A DNA stretch of 64,000 nt from Escherichia coli (GTDB lineage Bacteria > Pseudomonadota > Gammaproteobacteria > Enterobacterales > Enterobacteriaceae): NCBI RefSeq assembly GCF_009931435.1, contig NZ_CP043414.1; one strand, given 5' to 3'. Made by a program: the position numbers and the translations under genes. The number at the start of each line of letters is the position of its first letter. Position 1 is the stretch's first letter. Positions 29,340-62,969 of this stretch are shown piece after piece. The notes under the pieces are model-generated. The model ran no database searches. It had not been told where the DNA came from and worked only from the letters and a program-made list of their open reading frames with translations.

Positions 29340-30545
29340 ATGACGGAACAAGAAAAAACCTCCGCCGTGGTTGAAGAGACCAGGGAGGCCGTGGACACCA
29401 CGTCACAACCTGTCGCAACAGAAAAAAAGAGCAAGAACAACACCGCATTGATTCTCAGCGCGGTGGCTATCGCTATTGCTCTGGCGGCGGGCGTCGGTTT
29501 GTATGGCTGGGGTAAACAACAGGCCGTCAATCAGACTGCCACCAGCGATGCCCTGGCTAACCAACTTACGGCACTGCAAAAAGCCCAGGAGAGCCAAAAA
29601 GCCGAGCTGGAAGGCATTATCAAGCAACAAGCTGTACAGCTTGAGCAAGCGAATCGTCAGCAAGAAACGCTGGCAAAACAGCTGGATGAAGTCCAACAAA
29701 AGGTCGCGACTATTTCCGGCAGCGATGCTAAAACCTGGCTGCTGGCTCAGGCTGATTTCCTGGTGAAACTCGCCGGAAGGAAGCTGTGGAGCGATCAGGA
29801 CGTCACGACCGCTGCAGCGTTGCTGAAAAGTGCAGATGCCAGCCTGGCGGATATGAATGACCCGAGTCTGATTACCGTTCGTCGGGCAATTACCGATGAT
29901 ATCGCCAGCCTTTCTGCGGTATCGCAGGTGGATTATGACGGCATCATCCTTAAGCTGAACCAGCTTTCTAATCAGGTAGATAACCTGCGTCTGGCCGATA
30001 ATGACAGCGATGGTTCACCGATGGATTCCGACGGTGAAGAGCTTTCCAGTTCCCTCAGCGAATGGCGTATCAATCTACAAAAAAGCTGGCAGAACTTTAT
30101 GGACAACTTCATTACGATTCGCCGTCGTGATGACACCGCCGTACCACTGTTAGCACCGAATCAGGATATCTATCTGCGCGAAAATATTCGCTCCCGCCTG
30201 CTGGTCGCGGCACAAGCCGTACCGCGTCATCAGGAAGAGACTTACCGCCAGGCGCTGGAGAACGTCTCCACCTGGGTTCGTGCTTATTACGATACTGATG
30301 ATGCCACCACCAAAGCGTTCCTCGACGAGGTGGATCAGCTAAGTCAGCAAAATATCTCGATGGATCTCCCGGAAACCCTGCAAAGCCAGGCGATGCTGGA
30401 AAAACTGATGCAGACTCGCGTGCGTAACCTGCTGGCACAACCGGCAGCGGGGACAACGGAAGCTAAACCTGCACCTGCACCTGCACCTGCACCTGCACCT
30501 GCACCGCAAGCTGATACTCCGGCAGCCGCGCCGCAAGGAGAATAA
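29340..30545 (+). CDS. hemX: HemX (putative uroporphyrinogen-III C-methyltransferase-like membrane protein)
   Basis: 401 aa; N-terminal TM segment, coiled-coil-like Q/A/E-rich region, C-terminal (PA)n repeat. Confidence 0.9.
30468..30497. repeat. hexanucleotide tandem repeat (CCTGCA)x5 inside hemX, encoding (Pro-Ala)n
   Basis: cctgcacctgcacctgcacctgcacctgca read directly; in-frame so copy-number change keeps the frame. Confidence 0.8.
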
Positions 30546-30547
30546 CC

Positions 30548-31744
30548 ATGCTAAAAGTGTTGTTGCTCTTTGTTTTGCTGATTGCGGGGATAGTGGTTGG
30601 CCCGATGATTGCCGGTCATCAGGGTTACGTATTGATTCAGACCGACAACTACAATATCGAAACCAGCGTCACTGGCCTGGCGATTATTTTGATTCTGGCG
30701 ATGGTAGTGCTGTTTGCCATTGAGTGGCTACTGCGGCGGATCTTCCGCACAGGCGCACACACCCGTGGGTGGTTTGTCGGACGTAAGCGTCGCCGTGCCC
30801 GTAAGCAGACCGAACAGGCGCTGCTGAAACTAGCGGAAGGCGATTATCAGCAAGTTGAAAAGCTGATGGCGAAAAATGCCGATCACGCTGAACAACCGGT
30901 GGTGAACTATCTGCTGGCTGCCGAAGCCGCGCAACAACGCGGTGATGAAGCACGCGCCAACCAACATCTGGAACGCGCAGCGGAGCTGGCCGGCAACGAC
31001 ACAATTCCGGTAGAAATCACCCGTGTACGTCTGCAACTGGCCCGTAATGAAAACCATGCAGCACGTCACGGCGTTGATAAGCTGCTGGAAGTTACGCCAC
31101 GCCATCCGGAAGTATTACGTCTGGCGGAACAGGCGTATATCCGCACTGGTGCATGGAGTTCGCTGCTGGATATCATCCCATCAATGGCAAAAGCCCACGT
31201 TGGCGATGAAGAGCATCGTGCAATGCTGGAACAACAGGCATGGATTGGCCTGATGGATCAGGCGCGTGCCGATAACGGTAGCGAAGGTTTGCGTAACTGG
31301 TGGAAAAACCAAAGCCGGAAAACGCGTCATCAGGTGGCGTTACAGGTGGCAATGGCGGAACATCTTATTGAATGTGACGATCATGATACTGCCCAGCAAA
31401 TTATCATCGACGGCCTGAAACGCCAGTATGACGATCGCCTGCTGCTGCCGATCCCGCGTCTGAAAACCAATAACCCGGAACAGCTGGAAAAAGTGCTGCG
31501 CCAACAGATCAAAAACGTGGGCGATCGCCCGTTGTTGTGGAGCACACTGGGTCAGTCGCTGATGAAGCACGGCGAATGGCAGGAAGCATCGCTCGCCTTC
31601 CGCGCGGCGCTGAAACAACGTCCGGACGCCTACGATTACGCATGGCTTGCCGACGCGCTGGACAGACTGCACAAGCCGGAAGAAGCCGCAGCGATGCGTC
31701 GCGATGGCTTGATGCTAACGTTGCAGAACAACCCGCCACAGTAG
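30548..31744 (+). CDS. hemY: HemY (TPR-containing inner membrane protein, heme biosynthesis-associated)
   Basis: 398 aa; two N-terminal TM segments then TPR-like repeats; starts 2 nt after the hemX stop. Confidence 0.93.
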   Translation: MLKVLLLFVLLIAGIVVGPMIAGHQGYVLIQTDNYNIETSVTGLAIILILAMVVLFAIEWLLRRIFRTGAHTRGWFVGRKRRRARKQTEQALLKLAEGDYQQVEKLMAKNADHAEQPVVNYLLAAEAAQQRGDEARANQHLERAAELAGNDTIPVEITRVRLQLARNENHAARHGVDKLLEVTPRHPEVLRLAEQAYIRTGAWSSLLDIIPSMAKAHVGDEEHRAMLEQQAWIGLMDQARADNGSEGLRNWWKNQSRKTRHQVALQVAMAEHLIECDDHDTAQQIIIDGLKRQYDDRLLLPIPRLKTNNPEQLEKVLRQQIKNVGDRPLLWSTLGQSLMKHGEWQEASLAFRAALKQRPDAYDYAWLADALDRLHKPEEAAAMRRDGLMLTLQNNPPQ

Positions 31745-31789
31745 CTCTTTCTCACCCGGAGGCAAGCACCTCCGGGGCCTTTCTGATAT

Positions 31790-31998
31790 ATAAAAAAACG
31801 CCTGCTCTTATTACGGAGCAGGCGTTAAAACAGGTCTGTATGACAACAAGTGGGTGCTTCACTCAACGTTGTGTCCATGGTGTCTGATGAGGCATAAGCG
31901 ACATCTGTCAGTGGACGATAAGCACCGTAAACGGCTCTGCGTCATTCCGGAGTTTATGAGGCACTAAGGCGAACATAAGAGATGGAATGAGCATCTAC
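31790..31998 (-). ncRNA. glmZ: GlmZ small regulatory RNA
   Basis: Minus strand reads GUAGAUGCUCAUUCCAUCUCUUAUGUUCGCCUUAGUGCC ... ending in hairpin AAGAGCAGGCGUUUUUUU, matching the remembered GlmZ sequence; located between hemY and aslA as in K-12. Confidence 0.8.
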
Positions 31999-32422
31999 TC
32001 GTTTATTATGCCACAGAGAACCGGGAAATAACATCCCTTAACACTTGTTATGAGATAATTCTGTAATCCTCTTTGCTTCCTGAGTAATAACTTCCTGAGT
32101 GAATATTTCTCCTGCGCACGATTCTACACATATATATAATGAATAATAAAAGTCATTCAATTAATAACATATATATTAATTGCTGTTAAAACTAAAAACA
32201 GCATCAATAATCAACGCGATATAACATCACCGCCTTACATATCACCTGCGCCAGAGGTAGGATTGAAAACGCTCTCCTGATTTTCCAATTCATTATCTGG
32301 ATAAATAAATAATTTATTTTCATCACTATTATTTATGCAATCATCCTGTCAGGGAGAGGGATCTCAATTATCAATGCTTAATTACGTCAACATTTTGACG
32401 ACATGAAACCGGAGCATTTTGC

Positions 32423-34078
32423 ATGGAATTTTCGTTTTCACCCAAACTTCTTGTTGTGGCTGTCGCCGCCGCTCTTCCACTCATGGCCAGCGCAGCAGAT
32501 ACCCCGTCAACCGCCACCGCACGCAAAGGCTTTGCCGGATACGATCACCCAAACCAGTATCTGGTTAAACCGGCGACCACTATTGCCGACAACATGATGC
32601 CGGTGATGCAGCATCCTGCACAAGACAAAGAAACCCAGCAGAAACTGGCGGAACTTGAGAAAAAAACCGGTAAGAAACCGAACGTGGTTGTTTTCTTGCT
32701 GGATGATGTGGGCTGGATGGACGTTGGCTTTAACGGCGGCGGCGTGGCGGTGGGTAACCCTACACCAGATATCGACGCCGTTGCCAGCCAGGGGCTGATT
32801 TTAACTTCGGCGTATTCTCAACCGAGTTCTTCCCCAACCCGCGCCACGATTCTCACCGGACAATACTCCATCCACCACGGCATTCTGATGCCGCCAATGT
32901 ACGGGCAACCGGGCGGTCTGCAAGGGTTAACCACGCTGCCACAGTTGCTGCACGATCAGGGCTACGTCACCCAGGCTATCGGGAAATGGCATATGGGGGA
33001 AAACAAAGAGTCGCAGCCGCAGAACGTTGGCTTTGATGATTTCCGCGGCTTTAACTCGGTATCTGATATGTATACCGAATGGCGTGATGTTCATGTCAAC
33101 CCGGAAGTCGCCCTGAGCCCGGATCGTTCTGAATACATCCAAAAACTGCCGTTCAGCAAAGATGACGTTCATGCCGTGCGCGGCGGTGAACAGGAAGCCA
33201 TTGCCGACATTACGCCGAAATATATGGAAGATCTGGATCAACGCTGGATGGAATATGGCGTTAAGTTCCTCGACAAGATGGCGAAGAGCGATAAGCCTTT
33301 CTTCCTCTATTACGGCACTCGCGGCTGTCACTTCGATAACTACCCGAACGCCAAATATGCGGGTAGCTCTCCGGCGCGCACCTCTTACGGCGACTGCATG
33401 GTGGAGATGAACGATATCTTCGCCAATCTGTATAAAGCACTGGAGAAAAACGGTCAGCTTGATAACACGCTGATTGTGTTCACCTCTGATAACGGTCCGG
33501 AAGCTGAAGTTCCGCCGCACGGTCGCACACCGTTCCGCGGTGCGAAAGGTTCTACATGGGAAGGCGGCGTTCGTGTGCCAACCTTCGTTTACTGGAAAGG
33601 CATGATCCAACCGCGTAAATCTGATGGTATTGTCGATCTGGCGGATCTCTTCCCTACGGCGCTGGATCTGGCAGGACATCCTGGAGCGAAAGTGGCGAAT
33701 TTAGTGCCGAAAACCACCTTTATTGATGGTGTGGACCAGACATCTTTCTTCCTGGGAACAAATGGTCAGTCTAACCGTAAGGCCGAGCACTACTTCCTCA
33801 ACGGCAAACTTTCTGCTGTGCGTATGGATGAGTTCAAGTATCACGTCCTGATCCAGCAACCGTACGCGTATACCCAGAGCGGGTATCAGGGTGGATTCAC
33901 CGGCACAGTAATGCAAACGGCGGGATCGTCGGTGTTTAACCTGTACACCGATCCGCAGGAAAGCGACTCTATCGGCGTGCGCCATATCCCAATGGGTGTA
34001 CCGCTACAGACCGAAATGCATGCGTATATGGAGATCCTGAAAAAATATCCACCACGCGCGCAGATTAAATCTGATTAA
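32423..34078 (+). CDS. aslA: arylsulfatase-family sulfatase
   Basis: 551 aa; signal peptide; sulfatase signature with the Cys/Ser target motif [11 protein letters not shown]. Confidence 0.93.
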
Positions 34079-58896: not shown

Positions 58897-58912
58897 GAAC
58901 TCTGAATCGCTA

Positions 58913-60388
58913 TTAACCCGCAACAGCAATGCGTTTCATATCTGTCATATAGCCGCGCAGTTTCTTACCAACCTGCTCAATTGCATGGCTGCGAATTGCT
59001 TCATTTACATCACGCAGCTGCGCGTTATCTACCGCACCTTCCGGAATAGCTTTACCTAAGTCGCCCGGTTGCAGCTCTGCCATAAACGGTTTCAGCAACG
59101 GCACACAAGCGTAAGAGAACAGGTAGTTACCGTACTCGGCGGTATCAGAGATAACCACGTTCATTTCGTACAGACGCTTACGGGCGATGGTGTTGGCAAT
59201 CAGCGGCAGTTCGTGCAGTGATTCATAGTAAGCAGACTCTTCGATGATGCCGGAATCAACCATGGTTTCGAATGCCAGCTCAACGCCTGCTTTTACCATC
59301 GCGATCATCAGTACGCCTTTATCGAAGTACTCCTGCTCGCCGATTTTGCCTTCATACTGCGGCGCGGTTTCGAACGCGGTTTTGCCGGTCTCTTCACGCC
59401 AGGTCAGCAGTTTCTTATCGTCGTTGGCCCAGTCAGCCATCATGCCGGAAGAGAATTCGCCGGAGATGATGTCATCCATATGTTTCTGGAACAGCGGTGC
59501 CATAATCTCTTTCAGCTGTTCTGACAGCGCATAAGCACGCAGTTTCGCCGGGTTAGAGAGACGGTCCATCATCAGGGTGATGCCGCCCTGCTTCAGGGCT
59601 TCGGTGATGGTTTCCCAACCGAACTGAATCAGTTTTTCTGCATATGCCGGGTCGGTGCCTTCTTCCACCAGCTTGTCGAAGCACAGCAGAGAGCCAGCCT
59701 GCAACATACCGCACAGAATGGTTTGCTCGCCCATCAGGTCAGATTTCACTTCCGCAACAAAGGACGATTCCAGCACGCCAGCACGGTGACCACCAGTTGC
59801 TGCCGCCCATGCTTTAGCGATCGCCATGCCTTCGCCTTTCGGATCGTTTTCCGGGTGAACGGCAATCAGCGTCGGTACGCCAAACCCACGTTTGTACTCT
59901 TCACGCACTTCAGTGCCAGGGCATTTCGGCGCAACCATTACTACGGTGATGTCTTTACGGATCTGCTCGCCCACTTCGACGATGTTGAAACCATGTGAGT
60001 AACCCAGCGCCGCGCCGTCTTTCATCAGTGGCTGTACGGTGCGCACCACGTCGGAGTGCTGTTTGTCTGGCGTCAGGTTAACCACCAGATCTGCCTGCGG
60101 GATCAGCTCTTCGTAAGTACCCACTTTAAAACCGTTTTCGGTCGCTTTACGCCAGGATGCGCGCTTCTCAGCGATAGCTTCTTTACGCAGGGCATAAGAG
60201 ATATCCAGACCAGAATCACGCATGTTCAGGCCCTGGTTCAGACCCTGCGCACCACAACCGACGATGACCACTTTTTTACCCTGAAGGTAGCTCGCGCCAT
60301 CGGCGAATTCGTCGCGGCCCATAAAGCGACATTTGCCCAGCTGTGCCAGCTGCTGGCGCAGGTTCAGTGTATTAAAGTAGTTAGCCAT
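58913..60388 (-). CDS. ilvC: ketol-acid reductoisomerase (NADP+)
   Basis: Start trimmed to ATG at 60388 ([23 protein letters not shown]), 491 aa; the longer ORF extends across the ilvY promoter. Confidence 0.97.
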
Positions 60389-60499
60389 GGTGATTCCTCG
60401 TGATGTTGTGCTTCTTATTGTTCGGTTCGCGTTTGCGAGATTGAATTCACTATATGACAGGAAATTTATTGCGGAAATTGATATATTCACAACGTCACA

Positions 60500-60514
60500 T
60501 TGCAATTTTTGCAA
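60500..60514. promoter_or_regulatory. candidate IlvY operator (LysR-type T-N11-A palindrome) in the ilvY-ilvC divergent region
   Basis: ttgcaatttttgcaa, a perfect TTGCA-N5-TGCAA dyad between the divergent ilvC and ilvY starts. Confidence 0.5.
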
Positions 60515-60537
60515 CATCAACATTGAGGGCTGCGCCA

Positions 60538-61428
60538 TTGGATTTACGCGATCTGAAAACCTTCCTGCATCTGGCGGAAAGCCGCCATTTTGGCCGCAGC
60601 GCGCGGGCGATGCACGTTAGTCCATCCACGCTTTCCCGACAGATTCAGCGCCTGGAAGAAGATCTCGGTCAGCCGCTGTTTGTGCGCGATAACCGTACGG
60701 TGACGCTGACCGAAGCGGGCGAAGAACTGCGCGTTTTCGCCCAGCAAACACTGTTGCAGTATCAGCAATTGCGCCACACCATCGACCAGCAAGGACCGTC
60801 GCTCTCTGGCGAATTACATATCTTCTGCTCGGTGACCGCTGCCTACAGCCATCTGCCGCCGATTCTTGACAGATTCCGCGCGGAACACCCGTCAGTGGAG
60901 ATCAAACTCACTACCGGTGATGCGGCGGATGCGATGGAAAAAGTGGTGACAGGGGAAGCGGATCTGGCGATTGCCGGGAAGCCGGAGACGCTGCCCGGTG
61001 CGGTGGCGTTTTCGATGCTGGAGAATCTGGCAGTGGTGCTGATCGCGCCTGCCCTACCGTGCCCGGTGCGTAATCAGGTTTCGGTAGAGAAGCCGGACTG
61101 GTCTACAGTGCCGTTTATCATGGCAGATCAGGGGCCGGTGCGCCGCCGCATTGAGTTGTGGTTCCGACGCAATAAAATCAGTAACCCGATGATTTACGCC
61201 ACGGTTGGCGGGCATGAAGCGATGGTTTCGATGGTGGCGCTCGGCTGCGGCGTGGCATTGTTGCCGGAAGTGGTGCTGGAAAACAGCCCGGAACCGGTGC
61301 GTAACCGCGTGATGATTCTGGAGCGTAGCGATGAGAAAACGCCGTTTGAGCTGGGCGTTTGTGCACAAAAAAAGCGGCTGCATGAGCCGCTGATTGAGGC
61401 TTTCTGGAAGATTTTACCGAACCATTAA
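60538..61428 (+). CDS. ilvY: LysR-family activator of ilvC
   Basis: HTH region [40 protein letters not shown]. Start placed at TTG 60538 to give about 296 aa; the longest ORF's ATG at 60454 would crowd the ilvC promoter. Start is uncertain. Confidence 0.88.
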
Positions 61429-62969
61429 CCCGCCAAAAAGAACCTGAACGCCGGGTTATGGGTTTCGTCGTGGCAATCGTAGCCCAGCTCATTCAGCCGG
61501 GTTTCGAAATCCGGTTCGTGGTCGCCAAGCTCGAACGCCGCCAGTACGCGCCCGTAGTCGGTGCCGTGGCTGCGATAATGGAAAAGCGAAATGTTCCAGT
61601 GGGTACCTAGCGTGTTGAGGAAGCGCAGCAGCGCACCCGGTGATTCCGGGAATTCGAAGCTGTAGAGACGTTCCTGCAACGGATGCGATGGACGCCCGCC
61701 AACCATATAGCGCACGTGTAGCTTCGCCATTTCGTCGTCGGAGAGATCAACCACGCTGTAGCCGCCATCGTTGAGCATCTGCAAAATTTCTCTTCGCTCT
61801 TCGAGCCCGCGGCTTAAGCGCACGCCGACGAAAATGCAGGCGTTTTTCGCATCGGCAAAGCGGTAGTTGAACTCGGTGACCGAACGCCCGCCAAGCAACT
61901 GGCAGAACTTCAGGAAGCTGCCCTTCTCTTCCGGGATGGTCACCGCCAGCAGCGCTTCACGTTGTTCGCCCAGTTCGCAGCGTTCCGAGACGTAGCGCAG
62001 GCCGTGGAAGTTCACGTTAGCACCGGAAAGAATATGCGCCAGCCGTTCACCGCGAATGTTGTGCTGAGCGATATATTTTTTCATCCCTGCCAGCGCCAGC
62101 GCGCCGGAAGGTTCCGCCACTGCGCGCACATCTTCGAATAAATCCTTCATCGCCGCACAGATCGCATCACTATCGACGGTGATGATGTCGTCGAGATACT
62201 CCTGGCATAAACGGAATGTTTCGTCGCCAATGCGTTTTACCGCTACGCCTTCAGCAAATAGCCCCACGCGCGGCAGATCAACCGGATGACCCGCATCCAG
62301 CGCCGCTTTCAGGCAGGCGGAGTCTTCCGCTTCAACGGCGATCACTTTGATTTGCGGCATCAGCTGTTTGATCAGCACCGCCACACCCGCCGCCAGGCCG
62401 CCGCCGCCGACCGGCACAAATACGCGATCGAGATGAGCGTCCTGCTGGAGCAGCTCCAGCGCCAGCGTGCCTTGCCCAGCGATCACCATCGGGTGGTCGA
62501 ACGGTGGCACCCAGGTGAAGCCCTGCTGCTGTGACAGTTCGATCGCTTTCGCTTTTGCTTCGTCAAAGTTCGCGCCATGAAGCAACACTTCGCCGCCAAA
62601 GCCGCGTACCGCATCAACTTTGATATCGGCGGTGGCGGTTGGCATGACGATCAGCGCCTTCACGCCTAACCGTGCGGAAGAAAACGCGACGCCCTGCGCG
62701 TGATTACCCGCCGAGGCAGTGATCACGCCATGCGCTTTTTGTTCTTCCGTCAGGCCCGCCATCATGGCGTATGCACCGCGCAGCTTAAAGCTGTGTACCG
62801 GCTGGCGATCTTCGCGCTTCACCAGAATCACGTTATCAAGACGCGACGAGAGCTTTTCCATTTTTTGTAGCGGCGTGACCTGCGCCGCCTCGTAAACCGG
62901 TGCACGTAGCACCGCTCTTAAATATTCGGCGCCTTCCGGAGCACCAGACAGGGGTTGTGAGTCTGCCAT
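61425..62969 (-). CDS. ilvA: threonine dehydratase, biosynthetic
   Basis: Start at the second ATG (MADSQPLSGAPEGAEYLRAVLRAPVYEAAQVTPLQKM), 514 aa; PLP-lysine motif SFKLRGA; start region overlaps the ilvD stop (TAATGATG). Confidence 0.96.
   Translation of the reverse strand: MADSQPLSGAPEGAEYLRAVLRAPVYEAAQVTPLQKMEKLSSRLDNVILVKREDRQPVHSFKLRGAYAMMAGLTEEQKAHGVITASAGNHAQGVAFSSARLGVKALIVMPTATADIKVDAVRGFGGEVLLHGANFDEAKAKAIELSQQQGFTWVPPFDHPMVIAGQGTLALELLQQDAHLDRVFVPVGGGGLAAGVAVLIKQLMPQIKVIAVEAEDSACLKAALDAGHPVDLPRVGLFAEGVAVKRIGDETFRLCQEYLDDIITVDSDAICAAMKDLFEDVRAVAEPSGALALAGMKKYIAQHNIRGERLAHILSGANVNFHGLRYVSERCELGEQREALLAVTIPEEKGSFLKFCQLLGGRSVTEFNYRFADAKNACIFVGVRLSRGLEERREILQMLNDGGYSVVDLSDDEMAKLHVRYMVGGRPSHPLQERLYSFEFPESPGALLRFLNTLGTHWNISLFHYRSHGTDYGRVLAAFELGDHEPDFETRLNELGYDCHDETHNPAFRFFLAG

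Follow-up and report, generated by a model that had tools for sequence, protein, structure and literature searches.

The stretch of Escherichia coli DNA analysed here (64 kb in total, referred to below as the window) carries near 60.4 kb, according to the list of its open reading frames, ppiC (plus strand), ilvC (minus), ilvY (plus), ilvA (minus) and ilvD (minus), which is the gene order of the K-12 ilv cluster in reverse orientation. Positions 60389–60537 are exactly the intergenic region between ilvC and the divergently oriented ilvY, and its length of 149 bp is also that of the corresponding region in MG1655 (3957821–3957969). The original prediction had described this interval as the ilvY-ilvC divergent control region, and the short region shared by the two genes, which characterizes the ilvYC regulatory region, is indeed what was found. 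Identities, coordinates, conservation, the onset of coding and the annotation were computed; PGAP annotation was taken from K-12 and from close relatives, among them the 99.8%-identical RMDEC465. The features of the region are collected in Table 1.

Table 1. Coordinates (window numbering) of genes and regulatory elements in and around the ilvC-ilvY intergenic region.
Feature	Position	Strand	Remarks
ilvC CDS (ketol-acid reductoisomerase)	58913..60388	-	ATG 60388..60386; start in PGAP annotation of RMDEC465 and in K-12 maps to 60388
ilvC 5' UTR, about 54 nt (inferred)	60389..60442	-	highly conserved; contains CACAACAUCAC
ilvC -10 region, CATATAGT (putative)	60456..60449	-	TATAGT = 60454..60449; read from sequence
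IlvY operator O2, 21-mer TTATTGCGGAAATTGATATAT (putative)	60466..60486	+	degenerate dyad overlapping the ilvC -35 region
ilvY transcription start (approximate)	60491	+	published offset
IlvY operator O1, 21-mer ACATTGCAATTTTTGCAACAT (putative)	60497..60517	+	core dyad TTGCAATTTTTGCAA at 60500-60514; matches published O1
Shine-Dalgarno GAGGG for ilvY (putative)	60525..60529	+	8 nt before start codon
ilvY CDS, TTG start (predicted), 296 aa	60538..61428	+	PGAP start in close relatives

Downstream, ilvY and ilvA are convergent and their stop codons overlap on a common TTAA at 61425–61428 (ilvY TAA at 61426–61428, ilvA TAA on the minus strand at 61427–61425). In E. coli 2013C-4282 and 2017-02-2CC, a hypothetical-protein gene is annotated directly 3' of ilvY, at the place where the window has ilvA. 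Divergence of the window as a whole was sampled at 30000–33000 and 58900–61430. The hemX-hemY-aslA segment matched only one of 5426 complete E. coli genomes at an identity of at least 99%, and the ilvC-ilvY segment was 90–95% identical to 5404 of the 5426; these comparisons mark the window as belonging to a divergent lineage of E. coli. A few plasmid-labelled E. coli records also carry ilvY/ilvC (e.g. the 57.9-kb NZ_CP081793.1, with 87.8% identity), and these may be mis-assigned contigs or plasmid-captured chromosomal segments.

The longest open reading frames do not respect the intergenic region. As the original prediction had noted, the longest ilvY frame opens at an upstream ATG, at 60454, and is listed as 60454–61428 with 324 aa. 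The maximal ilvC frame (58913–60538 on the minus strand) has 541 aa and contains the annotated ilvC start in its interior; its opening ATG (60538..60536) exists because the ilvY start has the CA-TTG allele here. Both maximal frames span the entire intergenic region, and a longest-ORF rule would therefore mis-annotate ilvC (541 aa) as well as ilvY (324 aa).

For localization of the ilvY start, 80 orthologous loci, one per species (GTDB species representatives), were aligned with the window and two further E. coli records (83 Enterobacteriaceae loci in total). The TTG at 60538–60540 is followed by GAT TTA CGC, giving M-D-L-R, and the codons after the TTG read D-L-R-D-L-K-T-F in all. The codon homologous to it is start-capable in every one of the 83 loci, other genera included (GTG in 66, ATG in 14, TTG in 3). 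From the ilvC start through O1 (60377–60515), most columns are at least 90% conserved; conservation then collapses over 60516–60537, where a GGAG/GAGG-type motif at the Shine-Dalgarno position is the only conserved element, and it returns at 60541. Mean column entropy by codon phase is 0.048/0.026/0.774 at +4 to +120 compared with 0.60/0.73/0.75 at -84 to -1, with the onset of third-codon-position variation exactly at 60541, a pattern which indicates that coding constraint starts at 60538.

The domain structure of the product points to the same codon. Pfam HTH_1 (PF00126) matches residues 3–62 of the 296-aa IlvY (E = 3e-23) and PF03466 (LysR_substrate) matches residues 89–293 (E = 4e-37), so that both domains of a LysR-type regulator are present, and with the NCBIfam equivalog model for IlvY, NF008722 (cut-off 246 bits), the protein scores 513 bits. 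Positions 1–292 of the 293 in this profile align with IlvY residues 1–295, the profile beginning at residue 1. Folding of the ilvY 5' UTR and start region is weaker than that of shuffled controls (z = +2.0), as would suit an initiation site open to ribosomes. RefSeq/PGAP annotation places the start at the position homologous to 60538 in 16 of 16 genomes inspected; the TRAINSPOTTER N-terminomics supplements were searched for ilvY and contain no entry for it.

Translation of ilvY wholly or partly from the ATG at 60454 would give the 324-aa protein, with an N-terminal extension of 28 residues. This ATG offers a canonical start codon and the longest frame, the frame is open in the window and in K-12 (for 93 nt upstream in both), and an uninterrupted ATG at -84 is kept in 16 of the 83 loci, but in no more than these. 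In 56 of the 83, in-frame stops at most 48 nt upstream of the ilvY start (commonest distance 18 nt) cut the extension; moreover, codon periodicity is absent upstream of 60538, and the 28 residues match no domain, the LysR helix-turn-helix normally beginning at residues 1–5. Relative to the ilvY transcription start derived from the literature as summarized in PMC5002191, the ATG is also about 37 bp upstream, and it has no usable Shine-Dalgarno sequence: the anti-SD duplex reaches -3.0 kcal/mol with pairing at least 13 nt away, as against -6.1 kcal/mol for 60538. On the plus strand, 60454–60456 is the complement of the CAT within the ilvC -10 region, and this accounts for the partial conservation of the ATG. 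Loss of frame between 60454 and the start was also considered as an argument against the ATG and was dropped: 76 of the 83 loci show a distance of 84 nt. Since the spacing between operator and start is conserved, the upstream frame is preserved for non-coding reasons, and frame conservation alone would be insufficient to exclude this codon. On the whole of the evidence, initiation at 60454 is considered very improbable.

Initiation at another nearby in-frame near-cognate codon was weighed in the same way, the example being TTG 60523 (-15), an in-frame codon that in this allele falls within the transcribed leader. It shows no Shine-Dalgarno pairing (+2.2 kcal/mol), however, and overlaps the Shine-Dalgarno sequence that serves 60538; K-12 has TCG at this position, the codon is missing in most loci, and conservation of 60516–60537 is low and non-periodic. 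Such a start is held to be just as improbable as one at 60454.

Translation of ilvY from TTG 60538 thus has strong indirect support from upstream stops, codon periodicity, the Shine-Dalgarno motif, domain boundaries and annotation. This agrees with the original prediction, which had preferred this TTG to the upstream ATG while advising verification; the uncertainty about the start that it raised is small. What it stated about the sequence itself was confirmed throughout; two details needed adjustment. The length of about 297 aa that it gave for IlvY is correct for K-12, which has one more lysine at the C-terminus, but the protein encoded here has 296 aa. Alignment with K-12 ilvY, proposed as a check, returned the same start position but GTG in place of TTG, the sequence reading ...CCCT GTG GAT... 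in K-12 and ...GCCA TTG GAT... in the window.

The start codon was analysed as an allele. Counting relied on exact 30-mers chosen so that the first base of this codon fell within every 28-nt seed. Of 5426 complete E. coli genomes, at least 3364 (about 62%) carry the TTG allele (CA-TTG) and at least 1854 (about 34%) the GTG allele (CT-GTG; K-12 and O157:H7). An estimate that the TTG allele is rare, which had been based on three genomes at least 99% identical over 401 bp, was overturned by these counts. Elsewhere in the genus, E. albertii has TTG and E. whittamii GTG; the 14 ATG loci among the 83 aligned belong mostly to other genera, including Kosakonia and Phytobacter. The ilvY start codon is thus polymorphic within E. 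coli, with TTG as the majority allele and GTG in the K-12 reference, which is a modest new observation.

Upstream of the start, the dyad TTGCAATTTTTGCAA includes a T-N11-A motif (T60501 to A60513), and TTGCAANNNTTGCAA has its sole perfect match in the 64-kb window at this site, the runner-up having two mismatches. Perfect 6+3+6 dyads of any sequence number 30 in the window, i.e. about 0.07 are expected per 149 bp; a chance occurrence is only mildly unlikely, and the palindrome by itself is weak evidence. That the dyad is real follows instead from its position-fixed conservation and from its identity to a footprinted operator. The published O1, ACgTTGCAAaaaTTGCAAtGT on the other strand, comes from the DNase footprints of Wek & Hatfield (1988) as summarized in PMC5002191, and the 21-mer found here is its reverse complement except for a G-to-A exchange at 60516 (20/21 identical to K-12). 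The footprint comparison that had been suggested as a check therefore places the dyad within the published O1, as far as that summary describes it, and by sequence the dyad is the core of this operator.

Conservation of the core was determined on 93 fetched loci from Escherichia, Citrobacter, Salmonella, Klebsiella, Enterobacter, Kosakonia and other genera. TTGCA-N5-TGCAA occurs exactly once in 88 of the 93; the distance from its first base to the ilvY start is 38 nt in nearly all of these 88 loci and 37 nt in five. Variation among loci at 60509, the innermost base pair of the 6-nt arms, makes the perfect 6+3+6 form lineage-specific and TTGCA-N5-TGCAA the family-wide element, one that has been published previously (PMC5002191). 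The proposal that the dyad at 60500–60514 is a LysR-type operator is borne out by both results. At 60516, in the flank of O1, the G-to-A exchange lowers the self-complementarity of the 21-mer from 16/21 to 14/21; the base is G in all 20 other Escherichia genomes inspected and A in about 10% of the 83 aligned loci.

A chance palindrome or a hairpin in the ilvY leader RNA, with no protein operator at the site, is the least credible of the readings considered and can practically be discarded: perfect dyads of this type are common enough in 64 kb, and this one lies within the transcript, where it can fold into a 6-bp hairpin, but its sequence is that of the DNase-footprinted O1 in the published summary, the leader folds worse than shuffled sequences, and the TTGCA/TGCAA arms show neither variation nor compensatory changes in 88 of 93 loci, which argues for sequence-specific recognition rather than structure. 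A search of 60250–60700 against Rfam gave no RNA family match.

The second operator and the promoters were assigned as follows. Read on the opposite strand, TTATTGCGGAAATTGATATAT gives the published O2, aTATatCaatttccGcaATAa, and it is the same as in K-12; it is self-complementary at 8 of 21 positions and highly conserved in the aligned loci. The summary in PMC5002191 puts the centre of O1 at +17 relative to the start of ilvY transcription, and the centres of three inverted repeats at -65, -43 and -34 relative to that of ilvC. In the window, the dyad is centred on 60507 and O2 on 60476; counted from these centres, -65 and -34 both lead to an ilvC transcription start at 60442, so that the offsets are self-consistent, and the O1 and O2 sequences sit at the published positions, as in an ilvYC regulatory region. 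The transcription starts derived in this way would lie at about 60442 for ilvC and about 60491 (± a few nt) for ilvY. CATATAGT on the minus strand is 7 nt upstream of the derived ilvC start, and TATAGT within it, a good match to a -10 element, is probably the ilvC -10 hexamer, an assignment made with the help of the published offsets. A simple scan for sigma-70 consensus promoters and terminators reported no site at its threshold. Reg-Seq combined with mass spectrometry has independently placed an IlvY site at the ilvC promoter, and in Reg-Seq ilvC was repressed without inducer.

The ilvC 5' UTR contains the C/A-rich CACAACAUCAC, the complement of 60400–60410, and ilvC is a reported target of GcvB (PMC9299463). 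An 11-nt inverted repeat is formed by GTGATGTTGTG and CACAACGTCAC at 60400–60410 and 60488–60498, with a match of 10/11 in the window and of 11/11 in E. albertii and E. whittamii; the C/A-rich CACAAC(A/G)UCAC thereby stands once in the ilvC 5' UTR and once at the ilvY transcription start, which this copy spans.

Taken together, the region is almost certainly the classical ilvY-ilvC divergent, overlapping promoter region, in which IlvY binds two tandem operators cooperatively and is itself translated from TTG 60538. Binding, offsets and mechanism are taken from the K-12 literature here, and the exact transcription starts and hexamers are deduced from it. By analogy with K-12, the LysR-type regulator IlvY would bind O1 and O2 cooperatively, with O1 as the high-affinity site. 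O1 would lie just downstream of the ilvY transcription start, so that its occupancy would repress ilvY independently of inducer. Acetolactate or acetohydroxybutyrate would then bind the IlvY-DNA complex and change its conformation, and RNA polymerase would be recruited to ilvC; in the K-12 literature, as far as it is summarized in the sources used, inducer binding reshapes the -35 region of ilvC, at O2, and raises RNA polymerase binding about 100-fold, and the back-to-back ilvY and ilvC promoters are described as coupled through local supercoiling. Initiation at TTG 60538 would be served by the GAGGG, and the in-frame ATG at 60454 would not act as a start codon.

The feature belongs to established knowledge and its annotation in public records is correct; beyond annotation hygiene its significance is small: it is a textbook LysR system, and the RefSeq ilvY start is right. 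The variation at the start codon could nevertheless be of use, as TTG, GTG and ATG form a natural allelic series at an autoregulated transcription factor with which autoregulatory buffering of translation-initiation strength could be tested. Such variation would presumably be buffered by negative autoregulation at O1. That the variation is functional rather than neutral, with initiation strengths setting IlvY levels, possibly together with the G-to-A exchange at 60516, is thought unlikely; if it were so, basal repression and inducibility of ilvC would shift between lineages, with negative autoregulation compensating only partly.

The closest known system is the pair of divergent-overlapping ilvY-ilvC promoters of K-12 (Wek & Hatfield 1986, 1988; Rhee et al. 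1998, 1999), which has the same gene order and the same 149 bp. Positions 60389–60515 are identical to K-12, and the O1 core, O2, ilvC leader and Shine-Dalgarno sequence are shared; the IlvY protein is identical over 296/296 residues (b3773), although the ilvC-ilvY DNA is about 6% divergent. The window differs from K-12 in its TTG start in place of GTG, in five substitutions between O1 and the start codon, in the G-to-A exchange at 60516 in the O1 flank, in the absence of the additional C-terminal lysine (K297) and in the absence of a REP-like insert of about 55 bp that K-12 carries between ilvY and ilvA. Generic divergent pairs with LysR-type regulators (OxyR-oxyS, CynR-cynT, MetR-metE) have in common a T-N11-A recognition site and an activation site near -35. 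The ilvYC region resembles this pattern: ilvY would be autorepressed at a high-affinity dyad, with T-N11-A contained in TTGCA-N5-TGCAA, centred at -65 of the ilvC promoter, and a weaker site at about -34/-43 adjoins the -35 region. In contrast to the generic pattern, the half-site TTGCA is specific to IlvY, and the ilvY and ilvC promoters overlap back to back and are, according to the literature, coupled by supercoiling.
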